Of a DNA stretch of 64,000 nt, positions 31,070-53,769 are shown piece by piece. The stretch comes from Minisyncoccia bacterium (lineage in GTDB: Bacteria > Patescibacteriota > Minisyncoccia > Phycocordibacterales > UBA9973), in assembly GCA_039809245.1 (NCBI GenBank), contig JBDHUP010000002.1:75188-139187 (forward strand), written 5' to 3'. A program made the position numbers and the translations under genes. The notes beneath the pieces are model-generated. The model was given only the letters and a program-made list of their open reading frames with translations, was not told the DNA's origin and made no database searches. Within the stretch, counting starts at the first letter, position 1. Each line of letters starts with the position of its first letter.

Positions 31070-32998
31070 TTATAAGTATACTACTGTTTCCCCGCTCGGA
31101 GGTTTACCTTGTTCGAATTCTGTTAGGTGTTCTGGTATATCATAAATAAATTCACTAGGAGTATTTACTTGTTTCATACCGAAAATTGTTCGAAGTTGAG
31201 CATATGATAAATACAATCTGTGTTCTGCGCGAGTTAGAGCAACATAGAAAAGTCTACGTTCTTCTTCGGCATCTTCTTTTGTTTTATTCCCTGCCCGAGT
31301 ATGAGGAAACAGATCTTGTTCAAGTCCTGTAATGAAAACATATTTAAACTCAAGTCCTTTTGAAGCATGAACAGTCATCAATCTCACCCCACTATTTTTA
31401 TGCATTAGAGTATCTTGATCACTAGATAGTGCCGCGTCTTCTAGCAGCTTTTCTATTCCTTCACCTTGAGGCACTGTGTCGTATTTTGTAGCTAAAGTTA
31501 CTAATTCCCTCATATTTTCCAAGCGTTCTTGCTCGTCAGTCGTTCCACGAGCAAGTTCTTCTTCAAGTCCTGTTTTCTGAATTACATACCTTACAGATTC
31601 TGATGGAGTATGTGAGTCTGTATACTCTCTTATATCATCAAGCAATAAATAAAATTTATTTATTTTTTCTTGCATGGTTTTCGGTAGATTGGTAAATTGA
31701 TTTGAGAAAAGTTTAACAATAGTAACCTTACCTATTCCACGAGCTGGAATATTTATAATTCTTTTTATATCCGACAAACTTTCTTTATTATAAGCTGCCC
31801 TTATATATGAGAGTACGTCTTTAATTTCTTTTCTTTCAAAAAATTTAACACCAAGAACTTGATAAGGAATTTGTCTTCCAAGTAGCGCTTCTTCTAAGAC
31901 ACGTGACTGAAAGTTAGCGCGGTATAGTATAGCAATGTCTTCGGGTTTATTTTCACCAAGTAATTCATCTATCTTACTTGCTACATAGGAAGCCTCACTC
32001 CCCTCATCGTAAGCTTCATACACGCTTATCTGATCACCTAGTTTGTTCTCGGTGAATAGTGTTTTAGAAACTCGATATGTATTTTTTTCTATAACAGCAT
32101 TAGCGGCTTCAATAATATTTTTAGTTGAACGATAATTTTGTTCAAGAAGAATTATCTTTGCATTCGGGTAATCTTTCTCGAAGTGAAGCATATTCTTTAT
32201 GTTGGCTCCTCTCCAACTATAAATATTCTGATCAGTATCACCGACAACACAAATATTCTCATTTTTACCGACTAATAATTTTGTTAATTCATATTGAACT
32301 TCATTGGTATCTTGGTACTCATCTACATGTATGTATTTCCATCTTTCTTGGTATTTCATTTTTACCTCAGGGTACTTTTTTAGTATTTGTACTGTTTCGA
32401 TAAGTAGATCATCAAAGTCTAGAGCCTTTTCATTCTTTAGGGCTATTTCGTAGTCGCGCCAGAGTACAGCGACAATACTTCCAAAAGAACTGTTTACATT
32501 TTGACTATAAGATTCCTGGGTTATAAAATCTCCTTTTGATTTTGAAATGACACTTTTTATTTTGCGAGGCTCATATTGTTTCGGATCTATGTCACGAGCT
32601 TTCATAGCATCTTTTAAGATAACTAGAGCATCGTGTTCATCCGCAATCGCGAAGTGCTTAGTTAGACCTATAAGATGTGCATTTTCTTTTATAATATGAA
32701 CTCCAAGGGCATGAAAAGTAGAAACAAAAGGCAATTCAGCGTTATAAATAGAGTTGTTACCATGGATTGGTTGGTCTAAAAGGGATACCACTCGATCCCT
32801 CATTTCTTTAGCGGCCTTATTTGTGAATGTTACTGCAAGTATCGATGAAGGTGCTATACCTTGGTGGATTAGGTGGATTATCCTATGAGTAATTGTTTTT
32901 GTCTTCCCTGCGCCAGCTCCAGCTACTATCAAAAGAGGTCCGTCTGTATATAGTACGGCCTCTTTTTGCTTATCATTTAGAGATTCTAGGTAGTCCAT
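31070..32998 (-). CDS. pcrA: UvrD/PcrA-family ATP-dependent DNA helicase
   Basis: Walker A GAGAGKTKT. UvrD motifs throughout. 642 aa. Confidence 0.85.
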   Translation of the reverse strand: MDYLESLNDKQKEAVLYTDGPLLIVAGAGAGKTKTITHRIIHLIHQGIAPSSILAVTFTNKAAKEMRDRVVSLLDQPIHGNNSIYNAELPFVSTFHALGVHIIKENAHLIGLTKHFAIADEHDALVILKDAMKARDIDPKQYEPRKIKSVISKSKGDFITQESYSQNVNSSFGSIVAVLWRDYEIALKNEKALDFDDLLIETVQILKKYPEVKMKYQERWKYIHVDEYQDTNEVQYELTKLLVGKNENICVVGDTDQNIYSWRGANIKNMLHFEKDYPNAKIILLEQNYRSTKNIIEAANAVIEKNTYRVSKTLFTENKLGDQISVYEAYDEGSEASYVASKIDELLGENKPEDIAILYRANFQSRVLEEALLGRQIPYQVLGVKFFERKEIKDVLSYIRAAYNKESLSDIKRIINIPARGIGKVTIVKLFSNQFTNLPKTMQEKINKFYLLLDDIREYTDSHTPSESVRYVIQKTGLEEELARGTTDEQERLENMRELVTLATKYDTVPQGEGIEKLLEDAALSSDQDTLMHKNSGVRLMTVHASKGLEFKYVFITGLEQDLFPHTRAGNKTKEDAEEERRLFYVALTRAEHRLYLSYAQLRTIFGMKQVNTPSEFIYDIPEHLTEFEQGKPPSGETVVYL

Positions 32999-34845: not shown

Positions 34846-34874
34846 AATCCCCGACAGAATCGGGGATTTTATTA
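34846..34874. terminator. Bidirectional intrinsic terminator
   Basis: aaatccccgacagaatcggggattttatt. Confidence 0.65.
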
Positions 34875-36569
34875 TGAAACTTCTTGTTGGTAGCAACTCT
34901 CACAGTAAACTATTTCTTTTCTATCTGGGGAATATGTAGTTTCAAAATTTTCTTTACAATGCTCCCCACTGTGATTCATATGATTTTCTTTATCGCACAT
35001 ACAAGAGCGAGCCCAAAGTTTTCTAGGATTTCTCTTACTCATTCTATTTTGGTGGCGGCATTCAAAGTCTTTGTGTGGAATTGGTAACCCCATTCTTTTG
35101 TAAAATTCAACTTCTGCCTGAGTTAATTTAAAATTTTTTCCGCATTCATTACAAGCAAATATTTCAGATAAAACTCCTTCGGGTATTTTCTCACATGTAT
35201 TTGGCATATTTTCTTCACTAATTGTTTCTTTACCAAATGTTCCAGTTGATTTCTCTTGCCAACTAAAACCTCTTTTTGTTGCCTCATCTCTTGTTAAAGG
35301 TAAAAAATCTTGAGCTAAAGATTCATTATAGCTAAATGGAGCAACGTCGCTTGGGAAAAATTGTCCATAGGTTCCGTCTTTTTTCATATTTTCACAGATT
35401 TTTTCTTTTAACTCAGAATATTCTTCTTTTGTGTATTGCTTGTTTAATATCATATACTCACCTTTTCTTACAGCTTCACAACCAAAAGAACTTGTTAAAT
35501 GGTGACAATTTTCACAGTATGCAACCTCATTTGAATAAAATATAAAAGCTGAATTTTTTGATTTGCTTATCTGCATCGCTCCCATCACGTTGTAACCAAA
35601 TTCACATTTATAGTAGTAATTATTACAATCCCAACTATCAGTTGGGCCCTCTGTATCTTTCATATAAGAGCAATTTTTTGCATCATAGGTGTCGTACAAC
35701 ATTACTCCATCATAACAATTATGTATATAGTCTCCTGTGACATTTTGGCACTTTGTTTGATTAGTATATTTTACGATTAGATTTAGTTTAAGTTTTTCGA
35801 ATTCTTTTTTTGCTTCTTCTATATTCTCATAACTTGATAGAATTTCAGATTTCTTTTTTTCATATTCATCCTTTGTATATTTAATATTTAAAATACAATT
35901 AGACATATTTCGTCCATTGGTACAAAAGATACAATTATTGGAGTTGCGCATGTTATAGCAAAACAATAAATCGCTGGAATCTTGGCATTGTTCAGAATAC
36001 ATACATCTAAAACATTTTCTAATATCTATGCACTCATAACACAGTTCAGATTCGTGTATAAAAGCGCAATCAACACAAAATTTATCTCGTTGAAGTAATC
36101 TACCATACATACAATCTTCATTGTAATCAGCAGCGAAAACTAGATAACAATCTTTATTTTCTGCAGAACCATTTGTGTAGTCACTCCTTACATTATTAAA
36201 TGCTACAAGACTTAGTCTAGGAACTTTCATTTGTAATTCTCTCCATTGATCAAAGAATGATCTGCTTAAATCATAATCCATAGCAAAATCTCTCGCATCC
36301 CACTTGTCGCTCCACCAACAATCATGACAATAAACTGTAAAATTAGAATCTTGTGTGTAAAGAGATACAATATCTTTTTCACAAAGATCACACTTTCTTT
36401 TATATAAAGTCCTCTCATTTCTAAAAGCTAAACGTCTAGCCATACGACAATCTGGGCAATCAACTGGTGAAACCGTATCCATCTGCTCATAAAAAACCAT
36501 ATCTTCATCACGAATTTCAAACTCCTTCGAACATGTTTTACAATTTTGTTTTGTCATATATCTTATCAC
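34872..36569 (-). CDS. Cysteine-rich multi-zinc-ribbon protein, paralog A (565 aa, ~45 Cys), unknown function
   Basis: N-terminal CKTC...CPDC, conserved CWWSDKWD, central array of C-x(5-15)-C, C-terminal CNECG...CRHQ...CMC...CESCYQQE. Paralog of 49209-50906. Confidence 0.6.
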   Translation of the reverse strand: MIRYMTKQNCKTCSKEFEIRDEDMVFYEQMDTVSPVDCPDCRMARRLAFRNERTLYKRKCDLCEKDIVSLYTQDSNFTVYCHDCWWSDKWDARDFAMDYDLSRSFFDQWRELQMKVPRLSLVAFNNVRSDYTNGSAENKDCYLVFAADYNEDCMYGRLLQRDKFCVDCAFIHESELCYECIDIRKCFRCMYSEQCQDSSDLLFCYNMRNSNNCIFCTNGRNMSNCILNIKYTKDEYEKKKSEILSSYENIEEAKKEFEKLKLNLIVKYTNQTKCQNVTGDYIHNCYDGVMLYDTYDAKNCSYMKDTEGPTDSWDCNNYYYKCEFGYNVMGAMQISKSKNSAFIFYSNEVAYCENCHHLTSSFGCEAVRKGEYMILNKQYTKEEYSELKEKICENMKKDGTYGQFFPSDVAPFSYNESLAQDFLPLTRDEATKRGFSWQEKSTGTFGKETISEENMPNTCEKIPEGVLSEIFACNECGKNFKLTQAEVEFYKRMGLPIPHKDFECRHQNRMSKRNPRKLWARSCMCDKENHMNHSGEHCKENFETTYSPDRKEIVYCESCYQQEVS

Positions 36570-36605
36570 CTGATTCTACTCATAAAGTGATAAAAAGCAA
36601 AGTTT

Positions 36606-38186
36606 TTATGAAATCATTCTCGGTCTATATTGTAGTGCTTCTAGGATGTGGGGAGTTGTTATATGTTCACTTCCTTCTAAGTCGGCGATGGTGCGGGCGA
36701 GCTTGATGACGCGGTGATAAGCACGAGCAGAGAGTTGGAGTCTTTCAGCTGAGTCATTCAGTAATTTTTTTATTTCTGATGAGAGCGGTGCATAGATGGC
36801 CAGGTCTTTCACATTCATTTCGCTGTTAGTGTTTATTTTCCTAGAATTATTGTGAGTCGATTTAAATCTTTTTGTCTGTATCTCTCTAGCTTTTCTAACT
36901 CTCTCTTTTATTGATTGAGTCTTTTCTCCTATTTGTTCTGTCTCTGAGAGTTTATCATAATCAACAGCTCCGACTGTCACCCATATATCTATACGATCCA
37001 TTATAGGCCCTGAGAGTTTGCGAGTGTATCTATCGAGATCATTTGGTTTACAGATACATTCTTTCTTTTTATTTCCTTTATTCCCACACGGGCATGGGTT
37101 CATAGCTGCGACTAGAATAAAGTTCGATGGGAATATTGCTGAACCTCGAGCACGAGAGATAGATACTATATTGTCTTCGAGTGGTTGTCTTAGTGATTCG
37201 AGGACTCTTTTTTCAAACTCTGGAAACTCATCCAAGAAAAGTACTCCACGATGAGCAAGTGTAACTTCACCTGGTTTAGGGTTTGCTCCACCACCGATCA
37301 TAGATACATAGCTTGCAGTATGATGCGGAGCCCTAAATGGAGGTTCAGTTATAAGTGAATCATCGAGTAATCCAACTACAGAATGGATGCCCGTTATCTC
37401 TAAAGCTTCATCTGTTTTTAAATCTGGAAGGATGTGCGAGAAGACACGAGCAAGCATCGTCTTCCCTGTGCCTGGAGGTCCTGACATAGCGATATTGTGC
37501 CCACCTGCTGCGGCAATCTCAAGTCCGCGCTTTGCGCCTTCTTGTCCACGAATATCTGAGAAATCGATGTCGTGGGTTTTCTTTGTAATTTTTATTTCAG
37601 TTTTTGGTTGAGGTTTTAGTTTTGATCTTTCTGGTTCAACAGGGTTACCTTTCTTGTCATATTTTATTTTATAAATATGATCTATTACTTCTTTTAAATT
37701 ATGTGCCCCATAGATAGTAATACCATCGACAAGAGCAGCTTCCTCAGCATTTGCTATTGGTAAGAATATTTCTTTATACCCCAGTTTCTTGGCTGCTTCG
37801 GCAAGAGGCAGAGCTCCTTTGATAGGCTGGAGTTCTCCATTTAGTGAAAGTTCTCCTAAAAAGATGCGGCCTTCTGGATCGAAATCTATTTCTTCGGCTG
37901 ATAGTAAGTATGCAAGTGCAATAGCAAGATCAAAATACGGTCCTTCTTTTTTTAAATCAGCTGGTGAAAGTGAGATAACTATTTTCTGGTTTTGATTTTT
38001 TGGTGAAGCAAATCCAGAATTCTTAAGAGCAGAACTCATTCGGTCTTTTGATTCATCGACAGCTTTGTCTGGCAAGCCAACAAGGGTAAAAGCGTGAAGA
38101 GTATTTTTCGTGATATCTACTTCAACTGTAACTATCTTTCCTTTTAGTAAATGTATTTGTGCAGAGTAAACTCTTGAAAACGACAT
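36606..38186 (-). CDS. comM: Mg-chelatase-like AAA+ ATPase YifB/ComM
   Basis: Lon-like N-domain, Walker A GPPGTGKTMLA, ChlI-type C-terminus. Confidence 0.85.
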   Translation of the reverse strand: MSFSRVYSAQIHLLKGKIVTVEVDITKNTLHAFTLVGLPDKAVDESKDRMSSALKNSGFASPKNQNQKIVISLSPADLKKEGPYFDLAIALAYLLSAEEIDFDPEGRIFLGELSLNGELQPIKGALPLAEAAKKLGYKEIFLPIANAEEAALVDGITIYGAHNLKEVIDHIYKIKYDKKGNPVEPERSKLKPQPKTEIKITKKTHDIDFSDIRGQEGAKRGLEIAAAGGHNIAMSGPPGTGKTMLARVFSHILPDLKTDEALEITGIHSVVGLLDDSLITEPPFRAPHHTASYVSMIGGGANPKPGEVTLAHRGVLFLDEFPEFEKRVLESLRQPLEDNIVSISRARGSAIFPSNFILVAAMNPCPCGNKGNKKKECICKPNDLDRYTRKLSGPIMDRIDIWVTVGAVDYDKLSETEQIGEKTQSIKERVRKAREIQTKRFKSTHNNSRKINTNSEMNVKDLAIYAPLSSEIKKLLNDSAERLQLSARAYHRVIKLARTIADLEGSEHITTPHILEALQYRPRMIS

Positions 38187-38193
38187 AAAATAT

Positions 38194-38222
38194 AAAAGCC
38201 CAAAGGGCTTCTTTGGGCTTTT
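38194..38222. terminator. Symmetric hairpin terminator between the traR/dksA-like gene and comM
   Basis: aaagcccaaagggcttctttgggctttt. Confidence 0.5.
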
Positions 38223-38225
38223 AAA

Positions 38226-38621
38226 CTATACGACCTTCTCCATACATGCTTTGCATGTTTGTGCTGCAGGGTTTGCTTCTAAGCGGTCTTCTTCAATCTT
38301 ATTACCGCATGATTTACATATCCCATAAGTTCCATTCTCGATTTCCTTCAATGCATTGTTTATGTCTTCAAGTCGTAGTTCTAGGGCTGTCATTACTCCT
38401 GTTCTTTCTTCGAAGTCCTCTGCTCTATCTGATCTATCATTCTCATCTGCTTCAGGCATATCTTGAGATTCTGGAACTGTTTCCCACTCTCCAGTTTTTT
38501 TATCGATTCTCCCTATATCACTAAGCTCGCTTTCTACAAGCTTTTTCTCTTCTTCTAATTTCTTTTTATTATTTTCTATATTCATATATTTAAATAGTAT
38601 CATTAATCTTATAAATGGCAA
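38226..38621 (-). CDS. DksA/TraR-family C4 zinc-finger protein
   Basis: N-terminal coiled coil. C-terminal CKSC-x17-CKAC zinc finger. Confidence 0.6.
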   Translation of the reverse strand: MPFIRLMILFKYMNIENNKKKLEEEKKLVESELSDIGRIDKKTGEWETVPESQDMPEADENDRSDRAEDFEERTGVMTALELRLEDINNALKEIENGTYGICKSCGNKIEEDRLEANPAAQTCKACMEKVV

Positions 38622-48783: not shown

Positions 48784-49143
48784 CTATTTTTTAATTATTC
48801 GAGCGTGGCGACGAATATGTGTACCCCAATGTGGCTTCTGGAAACGCTTGTATATTTTTGCAAAATCTTTTGTTTTATAAATTATGATAAATTTATCTCG
48901 GTATGTTAGACCTTGGATTGTAGATCCAATAAGAATTCCAATTATAGTAGGTGCTTCCATTTTAAAATAGAACATAAAAATTAAAATTAACCCGGTCCAG
49001 ATATAGTGGTGAATGTGAATACTGTACTCTCCTACTTTAAAAAACAACCCATTTTCCTTTTTGTGCCCTTCATAATGTCCTGACACATGTGAAGAGATCA
49101 TGAATCCTAATATAGAACCGATAATGATTAAAATAGTTTGCAT
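48784..49143 (-). CDS. Hypothetical membrane protein (3 TM, His-rich loop)
   Basis: ORF track, hydrophobic segments. Confidence 0.35.
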   Translation of the reverse strand: MQTILIIIGSILGFMISSHVSGHYEGHKKENGLFFKVGEYSIHIHHYIWTGLILIFMFYFKMEAPTIIGILIGSTIQGLTYRDKFIIIYKTKDFAKIYKRFQKPHWGTHIRRHARIIKK

Positions 49144-49208: not shown

Positions 49209-50906
49209 ATGGAAACAAAAAACTGTCAGAACTGTAAGAAAGATTTTAATATAGATGAGCGAGATCAACTTTACTATAAGAAGATCAATGTCCCCCATCC
49301 GACTTGGTGCCCGGAGTGTCGGCTTGTTCGACGTTTTTCATCACAGAATACTTGGAATTTAAGTTGGCGTAACTGTGCTAAATGTGGCGATAAGACTCTT
49401 TCAGTTTATTCGCCCGAACAAGAAATAAATGTCTATTGTCAGCCGTGTTGGTGGAAAGATGATTGGGATGGAACAGAATACGGAATGGACTATGATCCGA
49501 ACAGGCCGTTTTTAGAGCAGCTAGAAGAGCTTTCTAATAAAACTCCATATTCTGCGCTAACAAGCCTATACACTAGTAATAAGAATTGTAATTACGCCAA
49601 CGCCCTTGCTTGGTCAAAAGACTGTTATTTAGTATTTTGGGCTGATTTTTGTGACAGCGTACTCTATTCTTCATTGCTTAATACAGTTAAAAATAGTGCT
49701 GATTGCTTGCGAGCGTTAGACTCTGAATTATGTTACGAATCAATCGGGATAAATAAGTGTTATCAAACTTTCTTTTCAGAAGAATGTGAAGCTTGTGTTG
49801 ATGTTTGGTTTTCTCGTAATTGCTACAACTGTACAAATTGTATTGGTTGTGCAAATTTACGAGGTGAATCGTACTGTATTTTCAATGAGAAATATTCAAA
49901 AGAAGATTATGCCGAGAAAGTTAAAGAACTCGGCTTAGACTCTTGGGATAAACTACAAGATTTACAAAAGAAATCTCGAGCATTTTGGCTTACAAAACCA
50001 TACCGCTCATATACTGGGAACTCACTCAACTTAAATGTAACTGGTGAGTACACTTACGAATCAAAAAATTCAGAAGATATGTATATATGTACTGGGGCAG
50101 AAGATTGTAGAAGATGTCAGTTTATAACAGTAAAGCCAGCCAAAGACTGCTTAGATTATTCTGGTTGGGGCAACAACGCTACTAACATCTATGAATCTGT
50201 AACTGTTGGCGAGAATTCAGATTCTTGTTCATTCTGTCTTGAATGTTGGCCTGACGTGTTTAATCTACAGTATTGTATTTTTAGCATTGCAGGTAAAAAT
50301 AATTTTGGGTGTGTGAATTTAAAAAGAAAATCATATTGTATTTTAAATAAAGAATATTCGAAAGAAGAATTTGAAGAATTGAAAGCAAAAATTATAGAAG
50401 ATATGAAGAAAAATCCATACACAGATAAACTTGGACGCAAATTCTATTATGGAGAGTTTTTCCCTCCAGAGTTGAGTAAATTTGCTTACAATAAATCTAA
50501 CGCTTCTAAATTTTTTCCGAAAGAAAAAGGAGAAGTCTTATCTGAAGGTTACATATGGAGTGATATTGAAAATCCAACAACGGAAGCCACAATAAAATCT
50601 TCTGATCTGCCACTGACTATAAATATTACAGACGAATCAATATTAAAAGAAGTCATTGCGTGTTCTGACTGTTCTAGGGCTTACAAGATAAATAATGATG
50701 AATTGAATTTACTGCGTAAATTCAACATTCCTCTCCCGCATGAATGTCCTAAATGTAGAGAAAATAAACGTTTCGGTAGATGTAATCCAATACATCTTTG
50801 GGAAAGGAATTGTGCAAAATGTAATGAACCTGTTTCTACTGCATTTGCTCCAGATCGACCAGAAGTTATCTATTGTGAGAAATGTTATCAGCAAGAATTT
50901 GTGTAA
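49209..50906 (+). CDS. Cysteine-rich multi-zinc-ribbon protein, paralog B (565 aa)
   Basis: NCQNCKKDFNIDERDQLYY...CPEC, CWWKDDWD, C-terminal CSDCS...CPKC...CAKC...CEKCYQQE. Colinear with paralog A. Confidence 0.6.
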   Translation: METKNCQNCKKDFNIDERDQLYYKKINVPHPTWCPECRLVRRFSSQNTWNLSWRNCAKCGDKTLSVYSPEQEINVYCQPCWWKDDWDGTEYGMDYDPNRPFLEQLEELSNKTPYSALTSLYTSNKNCNYANALAWSKDCYLVFWADFCDSVLYSSLLNTVKNSADCLRALDSELCYESIGINKCYQTFFSEECEACVDVWFSRNCYNCTNCIGCANLRGESYCIFNEKYSKEDYAEKVKELGLDSWDKLQDLQKKSRAFWLTKPYRSYTGNSLNLNVTGEYTYESKNSEDMYICTGAEDCRRCQFITVKPAKDCLDYSGWGNNATNIYESVTVGENSDSCSFCLECWPDVFNLQYCIFSIAGKNNFGCVNLKRKSYCILNKEYSKEEFEELKAKIIEDMKKNPYTDKLGRKFYYGEFFPPELSKFAYNKSNASKFFPKEKGEVLSEGYIWSDIENPTTEATIKSSDLPLTINITDESILKEVIACSDCSRAYKINNDELNLLRKFNIPLPHECPKCRENKRFGRCNPIHLWERNCAKCNEPVSTAFAPDRPEVIYCEKCYQQEFV

Positions 50907-52129: not shown

Positions 52130-53671
52130 TCAGGCTCCGGCCTTGCGATCGGGTCCCTTGCCCGATCTCACCCCGTGTTTAGCGTGAACCTTCTCTACTT
52201 CTTCTTCCTCTAGTTTATCTTTTAAATCTTTAGCTTTTTGTCCTAATTCTTTTAGTTCATTATCACTTAGTTTATCTAGCTCTAATGATTTTTCCTTTAA
52301 ATATTCAACTGTATTCTTCTTTGGATCGTCTAAGACTTCTTCTAAAAGAGCGTGTAAAATCCATCCCATTCGGCGTGAGGGAGCCATCCCGAGCTCTTTT
52401 ATAAGCACTTCCCCGTCAATCGCAAGCGCTGATACTGAAAGTGGATCACGCAGAACTTCGTCAATCATAGCGTGGTATTTACGCAGACGATATGGAGCTT
52501 CAGCTTTCTTCATTCCTACCCTATCGCATTCGCGGATTTCCATTAGATGCCATATATTTTCTTTACCTACTTTCTGCACAATGCGACGAACTGCCGAGAG
52601 TGTAATCTGTTCTGTATCAGAGAAGAACATATGGTTACGCACAAGAGAGACTACTAGGTCTGTAGTTTTCTTCGGATATTTTAATCGCTCCATTATTGTT
52701 TTTGCCATACGTGCACCAATGACTTCATGGCCGTAAAATGTGTACGCTTTCTTTGTGCCCGGCCTACGGCTCTTTGGTTTTCCTATATCATGGAAGAGTG
52801 CAGCAAGACGAATTTCGGTATTATAGCCTTTATTTGCAGCGTGATTTAGCGCTCCAAGTAAATGCTCAAATACATCATATATATGTGCTCCTCCTTGCTC
52901 GCAACCAATTCCCTCTTCTAACTCTGGAATAATAAATTTTAATAATCCTAATTTTTCAAGTAAACCAATTCCTTGTGAAGGATTTTTGCTTTCAATAATT
53001 TTTGTAAATTCATCGCGAATTCTTTCCATCGAAATATTTTTTAAAAGATTCGAGTTATCCACAATCGCTTTCATGGTGTCATAAGAAATAGCGAAATCTA
53101 GTTGTGTTGAAAATCTAACTGCACGAAGCATGCGAAGTGCATCTTCGTTGAATCTGTCATTAGCCTCCCCTACTGCTCTTATAACTTTGTCCTTTATATC
53201 TTCTTGTCCTTTATAAAGGTCAATTAGTTGTCCTTTATGTGGGTTATAGGCTAGAGCATTAATTGTGAAGTCACGTCTTTTAAGGTCATCCTCTATGTTT
53301 TTACTGAATTTTACTTCATCTGGATGCCTAAAATCACTATATTTTGCCTCAATTCTGTATGGTGTAACCTCTATAATGTTATATTCTGGTGTTTCACGTG
53401 CAACATCTCCCCCATTTGTTACATGTGTAACGTTCGGAATGCAGACACCCACAGTGCCGAAAGTGTTCTCATATACAGTCTTTTCAAATAAAGGCATTAT
53501 TTCTTCTGGTATGGCGTTAGTTGTGATATCCCAATCTTTAGGGGTTTTATTTAAAATAAGATCACGAACGCATCCACCAACAAGAAAGGCCTCAAAACCT
53601 GCTTTTTCGAGTGTAGTTGTTACATGTGTAACATAGTCTGGTATTAAGTTTTTATCTATTGTGAGTTTCAT
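52130..53671 (-). CDS. cca: CCA-adding tRNA nucleotidyltransferase (PolyA-pol head + HD domain). Start trimmed to the ATG at 53669-53671 so it does not overlap the tRNA
   Basis: GGCVRDLILNKTPKDWDITT, RRDFTINA. HD region LFHDIGK. Confidence 0.8.
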   Translation of the reverse strand: MKLTIDKNLIPDYVTHVTTTLEKAGFEAFLVGGCVRDLILNKTPKDWDITTNAIPEEIMPLFEKTVYENTFGTVGVCIPNVTHVTNGGDVARETPEYNIIEVTPYRIEAKYSDFRHPDEVKFSKNIEDDLKRRDFTINALAYNPHKGQLIDLYKGQEDIKDKVIRAVGEANDRFNEDALRMLRAVRFSTQLDFAISYDTMKAIVDNSNLLKNISMERIRDEFTKIIESKNPSQGIGLLEKLGLLKFIIPELEEGIGCEQGGAHIYDVFEHLLGALNHAANKGYNTEIRLAALFHDIGKPKSRRPGTKKAYTFYGHEVIGARMAKTIMERLKYPKKTTDLVVSLVRNHMFFSDTEQITLSAVRRIVQKVGKENIWHLMEIRECDRVGMKKAEAPYRLRKYHAMIDEVLRDPLSVSALAIDGEVLIKELGMAPSRRMGWILHALLEEVLDDPKKNTVEYLKEKSLELDKLSDNELKELGQKAKDLKDKLEEEEVEKVHAKHGVRSGKGPDRKAGA

Positions 53672-53694
53672 ATGAAACTTTTTTACTGCTATTG

Positions 53695-53769
53695 TGGTGC
53701 GCCCGGCAGGAATCGAACCCACATCCACGGTTCCGAAGACCGGTACTCTATCCGTTGAGCTACGGGCGC
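53695..53769 (-). tRNA. tRNA-Arg (anticodon UCG), CCA encoded
   Basis: GCGCCCG acceptor stem pairs with CGGGCGC. Anticodon loop CTTCGGA. GGTTCGATTCC T-arm. 3' ACCA. Confidence 0.7.

Follow-up and report, generated by a model that had tools for sequence, protein, structure and literature searches.

The closest described relatives of the protein reported here are three short zinc-finger models, Pfam zf_Tbcl (PF13451), Pfam zf_Tbcl_2 (PF23477) and NCBIfam TIGR04272 (CxxC-x17-CxxC). The two Pfam models are 'probable treble clef' fingers, and all three are themselves uncharacterized. The gene studied, paralogue A, lies on the minus strand of a 64,000-nucleotide stretch of contig JBDHUP010000002.1 from a Minisyncoccia bacterium (the window) and encodes a cysteine-rich protein (34875..36557, stop codon 34872-34874). 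Paralogue B is encoded on the plus strand (49209..50906, 565 amino acids) and has the same architecture. The two genes are dispersed members of a very large and old multigene family, mostly of the Candidate Phyla Radiation (CPR). The reading as a whole, in which its members are cytoplasmic proteins with a duplicated zinc module and twin solenoids that act as adaptors or scaffolds, has about an even chance. The structural and evolutionary description of the family is held with high confidence. Zinc ribbons ZnR1 and ZnR3 of the family resemble zf_Tbcl (C-x2-C...FY...CP-x-CR) and ZnR2 and ZnR4 resemble zf_Tbcl_2 and TIGR04272. The three models span less than 20% of the protein. The tandem of zf_Tbcl and zf_Tbcl_2, duplicated at both termini, and the protein between the two copies are in no model.

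Gathering scores were 24 bits for PF13451 and 27 bits for PF23477, and the cutoff for TIGR04272 was 36. Residues 9 to 46 of A, numbered on a 565-codon open reading frame (ORF), matched PF13451 weakly and under the cutoff (13.7 bits, E 0.064), although the motif can be seen in the sequence. PF13451 was matched at E≤0.01 by 15 of 56 family members and PF23477 by 29 of the 56 at the same threshold. Residues 533 to 562 of B reached the PF23477 cutoff (27.2 bits, E 3e-6) and residues 56 to 82 gave a weak match to TIGR04272 (21.6 bits). The CxC...His-rich insert of A explains why no PF23477 match was reported for it. When A, B and the 56 members were scanned against Pfam, NCBIfam, PADLOC and PHROGs, matches were confined to the small zinc modules and a single PHROG, with no PADLOC match for the family. 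The PHROG was phrog_15341, which has no assigned function and gave a weak though significant match to residues 118 to 239 of B, corresponding to solenoid 1 (E 1.3e-5). A tblastn search of 50,697 phage records gave no match and a scan of IMG/VR gave one partial family match, located at a contig end. A phage or viral origin was rejected on these counts. No description of the family was found in the literature on its zinc-finger models, CPR zinc ribbons, beta-helices, grpE/dnaK or AlphaFold novel folds. An earlier reading of the DNA (the original prediction) could place the proteins in no known family, and searches of Pfam, NCBIfam, PDB and PADLOC agreed with it, matching at most the small terminal fingers.

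From the N terminus, A consists of a zinc module, a helical connector, a first solenoid with caps, a second solenoid with a cap, an acidic linker and a second zinc module. All of these features are on the minus strand and residue numbers follow the 561-amino acid form of A unless stated. The N-terminal double zinc module (residues 2-82, 36312..36554) contains ZnR1 and ZnR2. ZnR1 is zf_Tbcl-like, with C6, C9, C34 and C37, and is followed by a basic helix with the sequence CPDCRMARR (family consensus CPxCRxQRR). ZnR2, with C56, C59, C77 and C80, is zf_Tbcl_2 or CxxC-x17-CxxC-like and terminates in CWWSDKWD. The C-terminal double zinc module (residues 465-557, 34887..35165) contains ZnR3 and ZnR4. 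ZnR3 has C469, C472 and C500 plus H502, and Cys497 is Asp in all A orthologues. ZnR4 has C519 (or C521), C534, C552 and C555, carries a His-rich insert and terminates in CESCYQQE. B retains the canonical CxxC-x17-CxxC in ZnR4. Domains were compared by hhalign using slices of an alignment of 150 sequences, the members being mostly 33-42% identical to A. The two zinc modules were homologous (residues 2-82 against 465-557, probability 99.8%, E 1.7e-28). The multiple zinc ribbons of the original prediction are supported by hhalign and by the behavior of the ligands, with a double zinc module at each terminus.

The modules enclose a connector, two solenoids and a linker. The helical connector (residues 83-112, 36222..36311) has invariant or near-invariant columns and its helices had predicted local distance difference test (pLDDT) values of 97-98. 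Conserved connector residues are D84, W86, D87, Y95, D96, F101, Q104 and L108, and P113 follows directly. Beta-solenoid 1 (residues 113-226) and its cap helices (229-257) are encoded at 35787..36221. Beta-solenoid 2 (residues 261-374) and its cap helix (377-394) are encoded at 35376..35777. The two solenoids were also homologous (residues 113-239 against 261-387, hhalign probability 99.95%, E 1.4e-37). When the family consensus was stacked in rows of 12, a 12-residue repeat, '...n[KE][ND]C.[YD]....', was visible with approximately eight coils per solenoid. In the consensus each solenoid terminates in FGC..L...YCILNKQYSKEEY and continues into a cap helix. Beta-solenoid 2 of A terminates in FGC...Y(M/C)ILNKQYTKEEY. 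The acidic linker domain (residues 395-464, 35166..35375) has near-invariant columns, pLDDT values of 95-98 and a median net charge of -7. Its family motif is YGxFFP...(S)PFxYNE(T/S)xAQ..(F)P, plus G430..W433. A central repeat or solenoid had been proposed, and hhalign, the structural model and the sequence register support two homologous beta-solenoids built of 12-residue coils.

The AlphaFold2 (AF2) model built with the 150-sequence alignment had a pLDDT of 91.3 and a predicted template modelling score (pTM) of 0.91. Short strands recurred each six residues along both solenoids. This model replaced an earlier one made with a shallow 56-sequence alignment, in which the solenoids were ill-defined (pLDDT 73). 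The pTM indicates that the protein is probably rigid. Foldseek against BFVD gave only small zinc-ribbon proteins, with non-significant scores. PDB sequence and profile searches gave at best a LIM-finger resemblance (E 0.2-0.4). This profile match, in which ZnR4 aligned to finger two of the LIM domains of CRP, is not significant and is a generic treble-clef resemblance. Narrow beta-solenoid ice-binding proteins, namely Lolium perenne IRI (3ult) and the spruce budworm antifreeze protein (1m8n), showed a likeness of fold class only (4-6% identity). Unlike these, the family proteins look cytoplasmic and are flanked by zinc fingers, and inspection by eye showed no signal peptide. No T-x-T ice-binding face was seen, although no search aimed at one was made. 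The Tenebrio molitor antifreeze protein, which consists of 12-residue TCTxSxxCxxAx coils, serves as a comparison for a narrow solenoid. Left-handed beta-helix (hexapeptide-repeat) acyltransferases and gamma-carbonic anhydrases are also among the nearest known systems. The family does not belong with the hexapeptide-repeat transferases (PF00132), a group defined by a Hexapep match, triangular coils of 18 residues and a catalytic His at the trimer interface. As modelled, the pieces are of familiar fold class (treble-clef fingers and a beta-solenoid) and the whole protein and its central 380 residues appear to fall in no described family.

A and B aligned over their full length by BLASTP with 34% identity and 52% positives (E 1e-114). 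A second, off-diagonal alignment (E 2e-4) was a hint of the internal repeat. A has 39 cysteines, or 6.9% of its residues, and B has 40 (7.1%). The two ORFs proposed at 34872-36569 and 49209-50906 both exist, A being on the minus strand. Ancient colinear paralogy had been suggested by eye, and the end-to-end alignment and separate sets of close relatives at 63-88% identity bear it out. All motifs quoted in that reading were found in the translations, including N-terminal C-x2-C...FY...CP-x-C, CWW-x-D-x-WD and C-terminal CE-x-CYQQE. The C-x2-C-x2-C-x2-C run was found in B (C205-C214), at the end of solenoid 1. The two proteins had also been described as exactly 565 amino acids each, and for A this did not hold. 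The long ORF of A (34872-36569, minus strand, 565 codons) opens at GTG 36569. This GTG lies within a Shine-Dalgarno-like GGTGA (36570-36566) that precedes ATG 36557 by 8 nt. The database protein P0001, which is 100% identical to A, has 561 amino acids, a length also assigned by gene callers and found in all close orthologues. Judged from the sequence, A most likely starts at ATG 36557, so the equal lengths are a coincidence of ORF calling.

The behavior of the cysteines was examined in an alignment of 297 sequences. The ligands of ZnR1 and ZnR4 were 98-100% Cys. The ZnR2 ligands at 59, 77 and 80 were present in 62-63% of members and were retained or lost jointly (phi 0.96-0.98). ZnR3 ligands 472 and 500 were also retained or lost together (phi 0.94). 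A fixed swap of ZnR3 ligands was seen, the A subfamily having D497 and H502 and the B subfamily C497 and E502. The all-or-none behavior and the fixed swap identify the terminal cysteines as real metal sites. The central positions behaved differently, with 27-96% Cys and replacement by Ser, Val, Leu, Ala or Thr. Their co-presence was weak (phi ≤0.5) and mainly involved positions separated by 9-12 residues, which would stack next to each other in the coils. Positions 194, 203 and 206 were fixed as Ser or Met in the A subfamily and were Cys in B and in the consensus. C206/C209/C212 and C351/C360/C369 were 73-96% conserved. Because they exchange independently with Ser, Val, Leu and Ala, the central cysteines are best explained as buried ladder residues and not zinc sites. 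Such exchange is as expected if the modelled coil interior admits small side chains only. The high cysteine content thus has two causes, approximately 16 Cys/His ligands forming four zinc sites and the buried residues of the coil ladder. A count of conserved cysteines had been called for, and the 297 sequences separated the terminal ligands from the ladder cysteines in this way. The 'Zn-studded' center of the original prediction was not upheld, since the central cysteines swap freely (phi ≤0.5 compared with 0.94-0.98 at the zinc ribbons).

The same residues bear on a different explanation, a thiol or metal protein in which the solenoid cysteines bind Zn, Fe-S or Cu, or serve alongside the DnaK system as a thiol buffer or redox-switched holdase. 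Hsp33, which uses Zn-Cys, is the model for such a holdase. This explanation is considered unlikely. It would account for the 7% Cys, for the CxxCxxCxxC run that B shares with the family consensus, for position 221 and the near-invariant C209 and C360 (see below) and for the arrays that at least 10 loci have between grpE and dnaK. However, the free exchange and low phi of the central cysteines oppose it, as do the three consensus Cys positions fixed as Ser or Met in the A subfamily. No ferredoxin-type motif was seen, and no Fer4 match was obtained for A, B or the 56 members. The absence of three cysteines of the run from the A subfamily is unlike the invariant ligand sets of 4Fe-4S ferredoxins and polyferredoxins, and the central cysteines are replaceable and do not co-vary. 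The loci with grpE and dnaK represent just one synteny block, shared by related genomes.

The original prediction spoke of a pair, a description that proved too narrow for a large family with thousands of members and with tandem arrays of up to seven copies elsewhere. Significant relatives among the candidates scored numbered 3955 for A and 4904 for B. The 120 best relatives of each, with 520-590 amino acids and 63-88% identity, bore the names 'hypothetical' or 'zinc-binding domain-containing'. Among 1.84 billion cluster representatives a profile search gave 5166, 3618 and 2083 clusters (50% identity) at E≤1e-3, 1e-10 and 1e-30, respectively. The best 150 clusters were nearly all full-length at 545-600 amino acids. 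When one genome per GTDB species was searched, at least 575 loci encoded a family member. By record title the lineages included Nomura-, Staskawicz-, Uhr-, Falkow-, Lipton-, Abawaca-, Gracili- and Peregrinibacteria and other Patescibacteria. The family is nearly all from Patescibacteria (CPR), though not strictly so. One member fused to a GNAT acetyltransferase was named from a Bdellovibrionales metagenome-assembled genome. The neighbors of one GNAT-fused member were pyruvate:ferredoxin oxidoreductase, GuaA/IMPDH and a FliI-like ATPase, a gene context that we judge to be unlike CPR bacteria. Burkholderiales and Azospirillum were rejected as hosts, the DNA of loci L081 (JAMPXW010000001.1, a 277-kb contig) and L010 (CAZUOS010000216.1) being only 31-33% GC. 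The contigs bearing these titles most likely come from Patescibacteria and were mis-binned or mislabelled.

A home-made hidden Markov model identified 175 family members among the ORFs of 82 fetched loci. Head-to-tail arrays of four to seven full-length paralogues (540-600 amino acids) were present in many loci (L061, L043, L045, L057, L065, L068, L076). Stop and start codons of neighboring copies often overlapped. The array of L061 (1-12202) holds seven copies within 12.2 kb and assembly CAYVDC01 has at least seven in two fetched loci. Copy number per genome ranged from two to at least seven. Paralogues inside arrays were only 29-58% identical to each other, so the arrays are old. Several assemblies hold an A-type copy together with more distant copies. 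Together with the separate sets of close relatives, this indicates that A and B likely split before these lineages diverged. Within the same pairs of genomes, identity was 67% for A orthologues, 67% for the CCA-adding enzyme, 64% for XerC, 58% for PNPase and 77% for ComM. A orthologues evolve at the pace of housekeeping genes and are under strong purifying selection. Members of 616-708 amino acids were rejected as fusions, their lengths coming from ORF-calling extensions. Long tblastn spans were rejected as inteins and are most likely adjacent tandem copies, as arrays were seen in the loci.

Patescibacteria account for a large share of bacterial diversity and have genomes of approximately 1 Mb, in which about half of the genes have no known function. 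An array of seven copies and 12 kb would exceed 1% of such a genome. Housekeeping-level conservation, breadth, copy number and a predicted structure with no solved relative place the family among the larger well-defined unknowns of the group. Its function probably concerns something specific to Patescibacteria biology. The predicted structure is a cytoplasmic solenoid of 12-residue coils with a core ladder of free-thiol Cys and Ser, a build otherwise of extracellular antifreeze proteins. The novelty is that of an uncharacterized and structurally unmatched family and not of a demonstrated new mechanism. It is of relevance to specialists in CPR biology and in protein structure.

The adaptor or scaffold reading is based on the conserved residues and on recurrent neighbors. 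The positions conserved in at least 90% of 150 diverse members include no His, Lys or solenoid Cys, and most of them are aromatic residues, Pro, Gly, Asn or Asp. Beyond the zinc sites and solenoid ends these members have no conserved Cys. The types of residue conserved, with no cofactor motif and no enzyme fold, suggest that the protein serves in binding or as a scaffold and is not an enzyme. No N-terminal signal peptide was apparent by eye in A or B, where a zinc knuckle begins as early as residue 6, and the protein looks cytoplasmic. A specific form of the reading, a non-enzymatic and zinc-dependent adaptor or scaffold, is offered only tentatively. Through its four fingers the protein would dock on nucleic acid or on other proteins. 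A soluble VirD4/HerA-like ATPase, which has the same zf_Tbcl_2 module, is one candidate for such a partner. The two solenoids may serve as rigid spacers or binding surfaces and the many old paralogues may supply alternative specificities. Two features suggest docking on nucleic acid, on the ATPase or on a common partner, namely the basic CPxCRxxRR helices in ZnR1 and ZnR3 and the presence of the zinc module in the ATPase as well.

Three associations recurred among the 82 loci. A TrmB-like winged helix-turn-helix regulator (PF01978) was found, mostly divergent and upstream, in approximately 19 of them plus L089 and L092, next to different subfamilies (L001 4643-5431; L089 3764-4912; L092 8695-9462). 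The divergently transcribed regulator, a candidate for one dedicated to the family, probably controls expression in many lineages. The soluble ATPase (TrwB_AAD_bind, DUF87, TraG-D_C), with its zf_Tbcl_2 finger (E 1.8e-14), flanked arrays in several arrangements in approximately 10 loci (L041 10424-12508; L045 11230-13716; L055 10362-12611). It was the sole non-family protein in the loci to match the ZnR2 and ZnR4 profiles. In L041 the finger of the ATPase is followed by a long Lys/Glu-rich tail. A synteny block of rplM, rpsI, grpE, one to four family copies, a reversed paaX-like gene and dnaK was present in at least 10 loci (L044, L046, L048, L051, L055, L056, L062, L064 and L066 among them), the copy number varying by genome.

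A number of points weigh against an adaptor or scaffold. With a median pI of 8.5-8.8 the zinc modules are just mildly basic, and overall the protein is acidic (net charge of A -16), which is untypical of a dedicated nucleic-acid binder. The analysis of domain charge gave no discrimination for a nucleic-acid-binding role. The geometry of the Cys ladder is that suggested by the DSSP string of the model and the register of the sequence. C209 and C360 are 94% and 96% conserved, respectively, and position 221 alternates between Cys, His and Tyr, so there may be one extra metal site per solenoid end. The counts for the ATPase, grpE/dnaK and the TrmB-like gene come from phylogenetically non-independent loci, and none of these genes is present in the window. 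The fusions to GNAT and inositol-monophosphatase (IMPase) family domains described below could equally indicate a small-molecule or regulatory role.

An enzyme or enzyme-regulatory subunit not recognized as such, with the connector (83-113) and linker (395-435) as active or ligand site, would give a use to conserved D84, D87, D96, S406, N411 and E482 and to the aromatic clusters, and the slow housekeeping-like evolution is in keeping with it. The fusions would then be Rosetta-stone hints. At least nine clusters had a conserved N-terminal GNAT acetyltransferase fusion, the fused proteins being approximately 730 amino acids long. One N-terminal IMPase-family fusion of 832 amino acids was found. 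The fusions of both kinds comprise L086 8001-10196 (P0375), P0399-P0406 and P0413. A GNAT-fused gene in the context judged unlike CPR bacteria follows directly after der/engA, and P0375 has several of its zinc-ligand cysteines replaced. An enzyme is nevertheless improbable, as no His, Lys or Cys is conserved beyond the zinc sites, seven or more paralogues per genome would be unusual for a core enzyme and the GNAT and IMPase partners are mutually unrelated.

A more specific role beside the ATPase was given no more than an outside chance. Here the family would be the client or adaptor set of the VirD4/HerA-like ATPase, the two forming a hitherto unrecognized, mostly Patescibacteria-specific machine for handling macromolecules under the control of the TrmB-like regulator. 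If true, the machine could, for example, process imported DNA or RNA or deliver protein to the host cell, and the paralogues would give specificity. The paralogues could also be an exported repertoire of effectors or cargo, substrates of a type-IV-coupling-protein-like ATPase that are sent to the host cell of the episymbiont. The TrwB/TraD/VirD4-like ATPase beside arrays in several arrangements and the zf_Tbcl_2 module that it has in common with the family are compatible with export, for which the chance is slim. Coupling proteins are membrane-anchored, in contrast to the ATPase representative inspected, which had no N-terminal hydrophobic segment by eye. Evolution of the family is slow, and its array paralogues are old and not rapidly diversifying. 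Four structural zinc sites would be awkward for unfolding-dependent secretion, and no PADLOC or phage association was found.

Upstream of A on the minus strand is comM (36606-38186), identified by its Mg_chelatase/ChlI domains in Pfam, and beyond it a dksA/traR-like gene (38226-38621), also identified by Pfam. The gap from A to comM had been given as 36 nt, which is right when counted from GTG 36569; from ATG 36557 the spacer is 48 nt (36558..36605). A scan for promoters and terminators found neither a terminator-like hairpin nor a good promoter in it, which makes co-transcription of comM and A plausible in this genome. A terminator-like hairpin with a 13-bp stem and T run (38193..38223, minus strand) lies between the dksA/traR-like gene and comM. 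Among 34 loci with A orthologues (≥60% identity) comM was immediately upstream in one, that of the window, so comM and A are not a conserved operon. In a sister genome the two are separated by a hydrolase gene and a divergent TrmB gene. The operon with comM and the dksA/traR-like gene that had been suggested is therefore not sustained, comM being upstream in one of 34 loci and the hairpin splitting off the dksA-like gene. That A acts in natural transformation or DNA processing through such an operon can hardly be credited, despite the shared strand, the short gap clear of a terminator or strong promoter, the same arrangement in two further assemblies carrying an identical A protein and the DNA-handling genes nearby, because A orthologues more often adjoin TMEM175-like, CCA-adding or M23 genes. 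The comM neighborhood in the window is incidental. The DNA-handling genes are a UvrD/PcrA-like gene (31070-32998, by eye) and XerC and Xth homologues near B.

The usual setting of A orthologues elsewhere is '(Xth) ... TMEM175-like > [A] < CCA-adding enzyme, YraN'. Synteny of the window between 46386 and 54651 was compared with loci L002, L007, L022, L028 and L092. In the window B holds the block running from XerC-Xth to the CCA-adding enzyme and YraN, and many other genomes have an A-type orthologue there. A in the window is at the locus running from comM to a LysM-M23 peptidase, as in L001. The XerC-Xth-B arrangement is common to the window and L092, which is from the same Joint Genome Institute sample as L001. 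L092 also has a third paralogue of 594 amino acids, which has lost the ZnR2 cysteines and follows a TrmB-like gene adjoining B. A gene of 119 amino acids (48784-49143) is divergent from B in the window. The long ORF of the CCA-adding enzyme (52130-53728, GTG start at 53728) overlaps a tRNA-Arg(TCG) gene on the same strand (53695-53769). The real start of the enzyme is probably an internal Met (MKLTIDKN...). A small cluster of tRNA genes (Arg, Gly, Pro, Gly) is located at 53.7-55.0 kb of the window.

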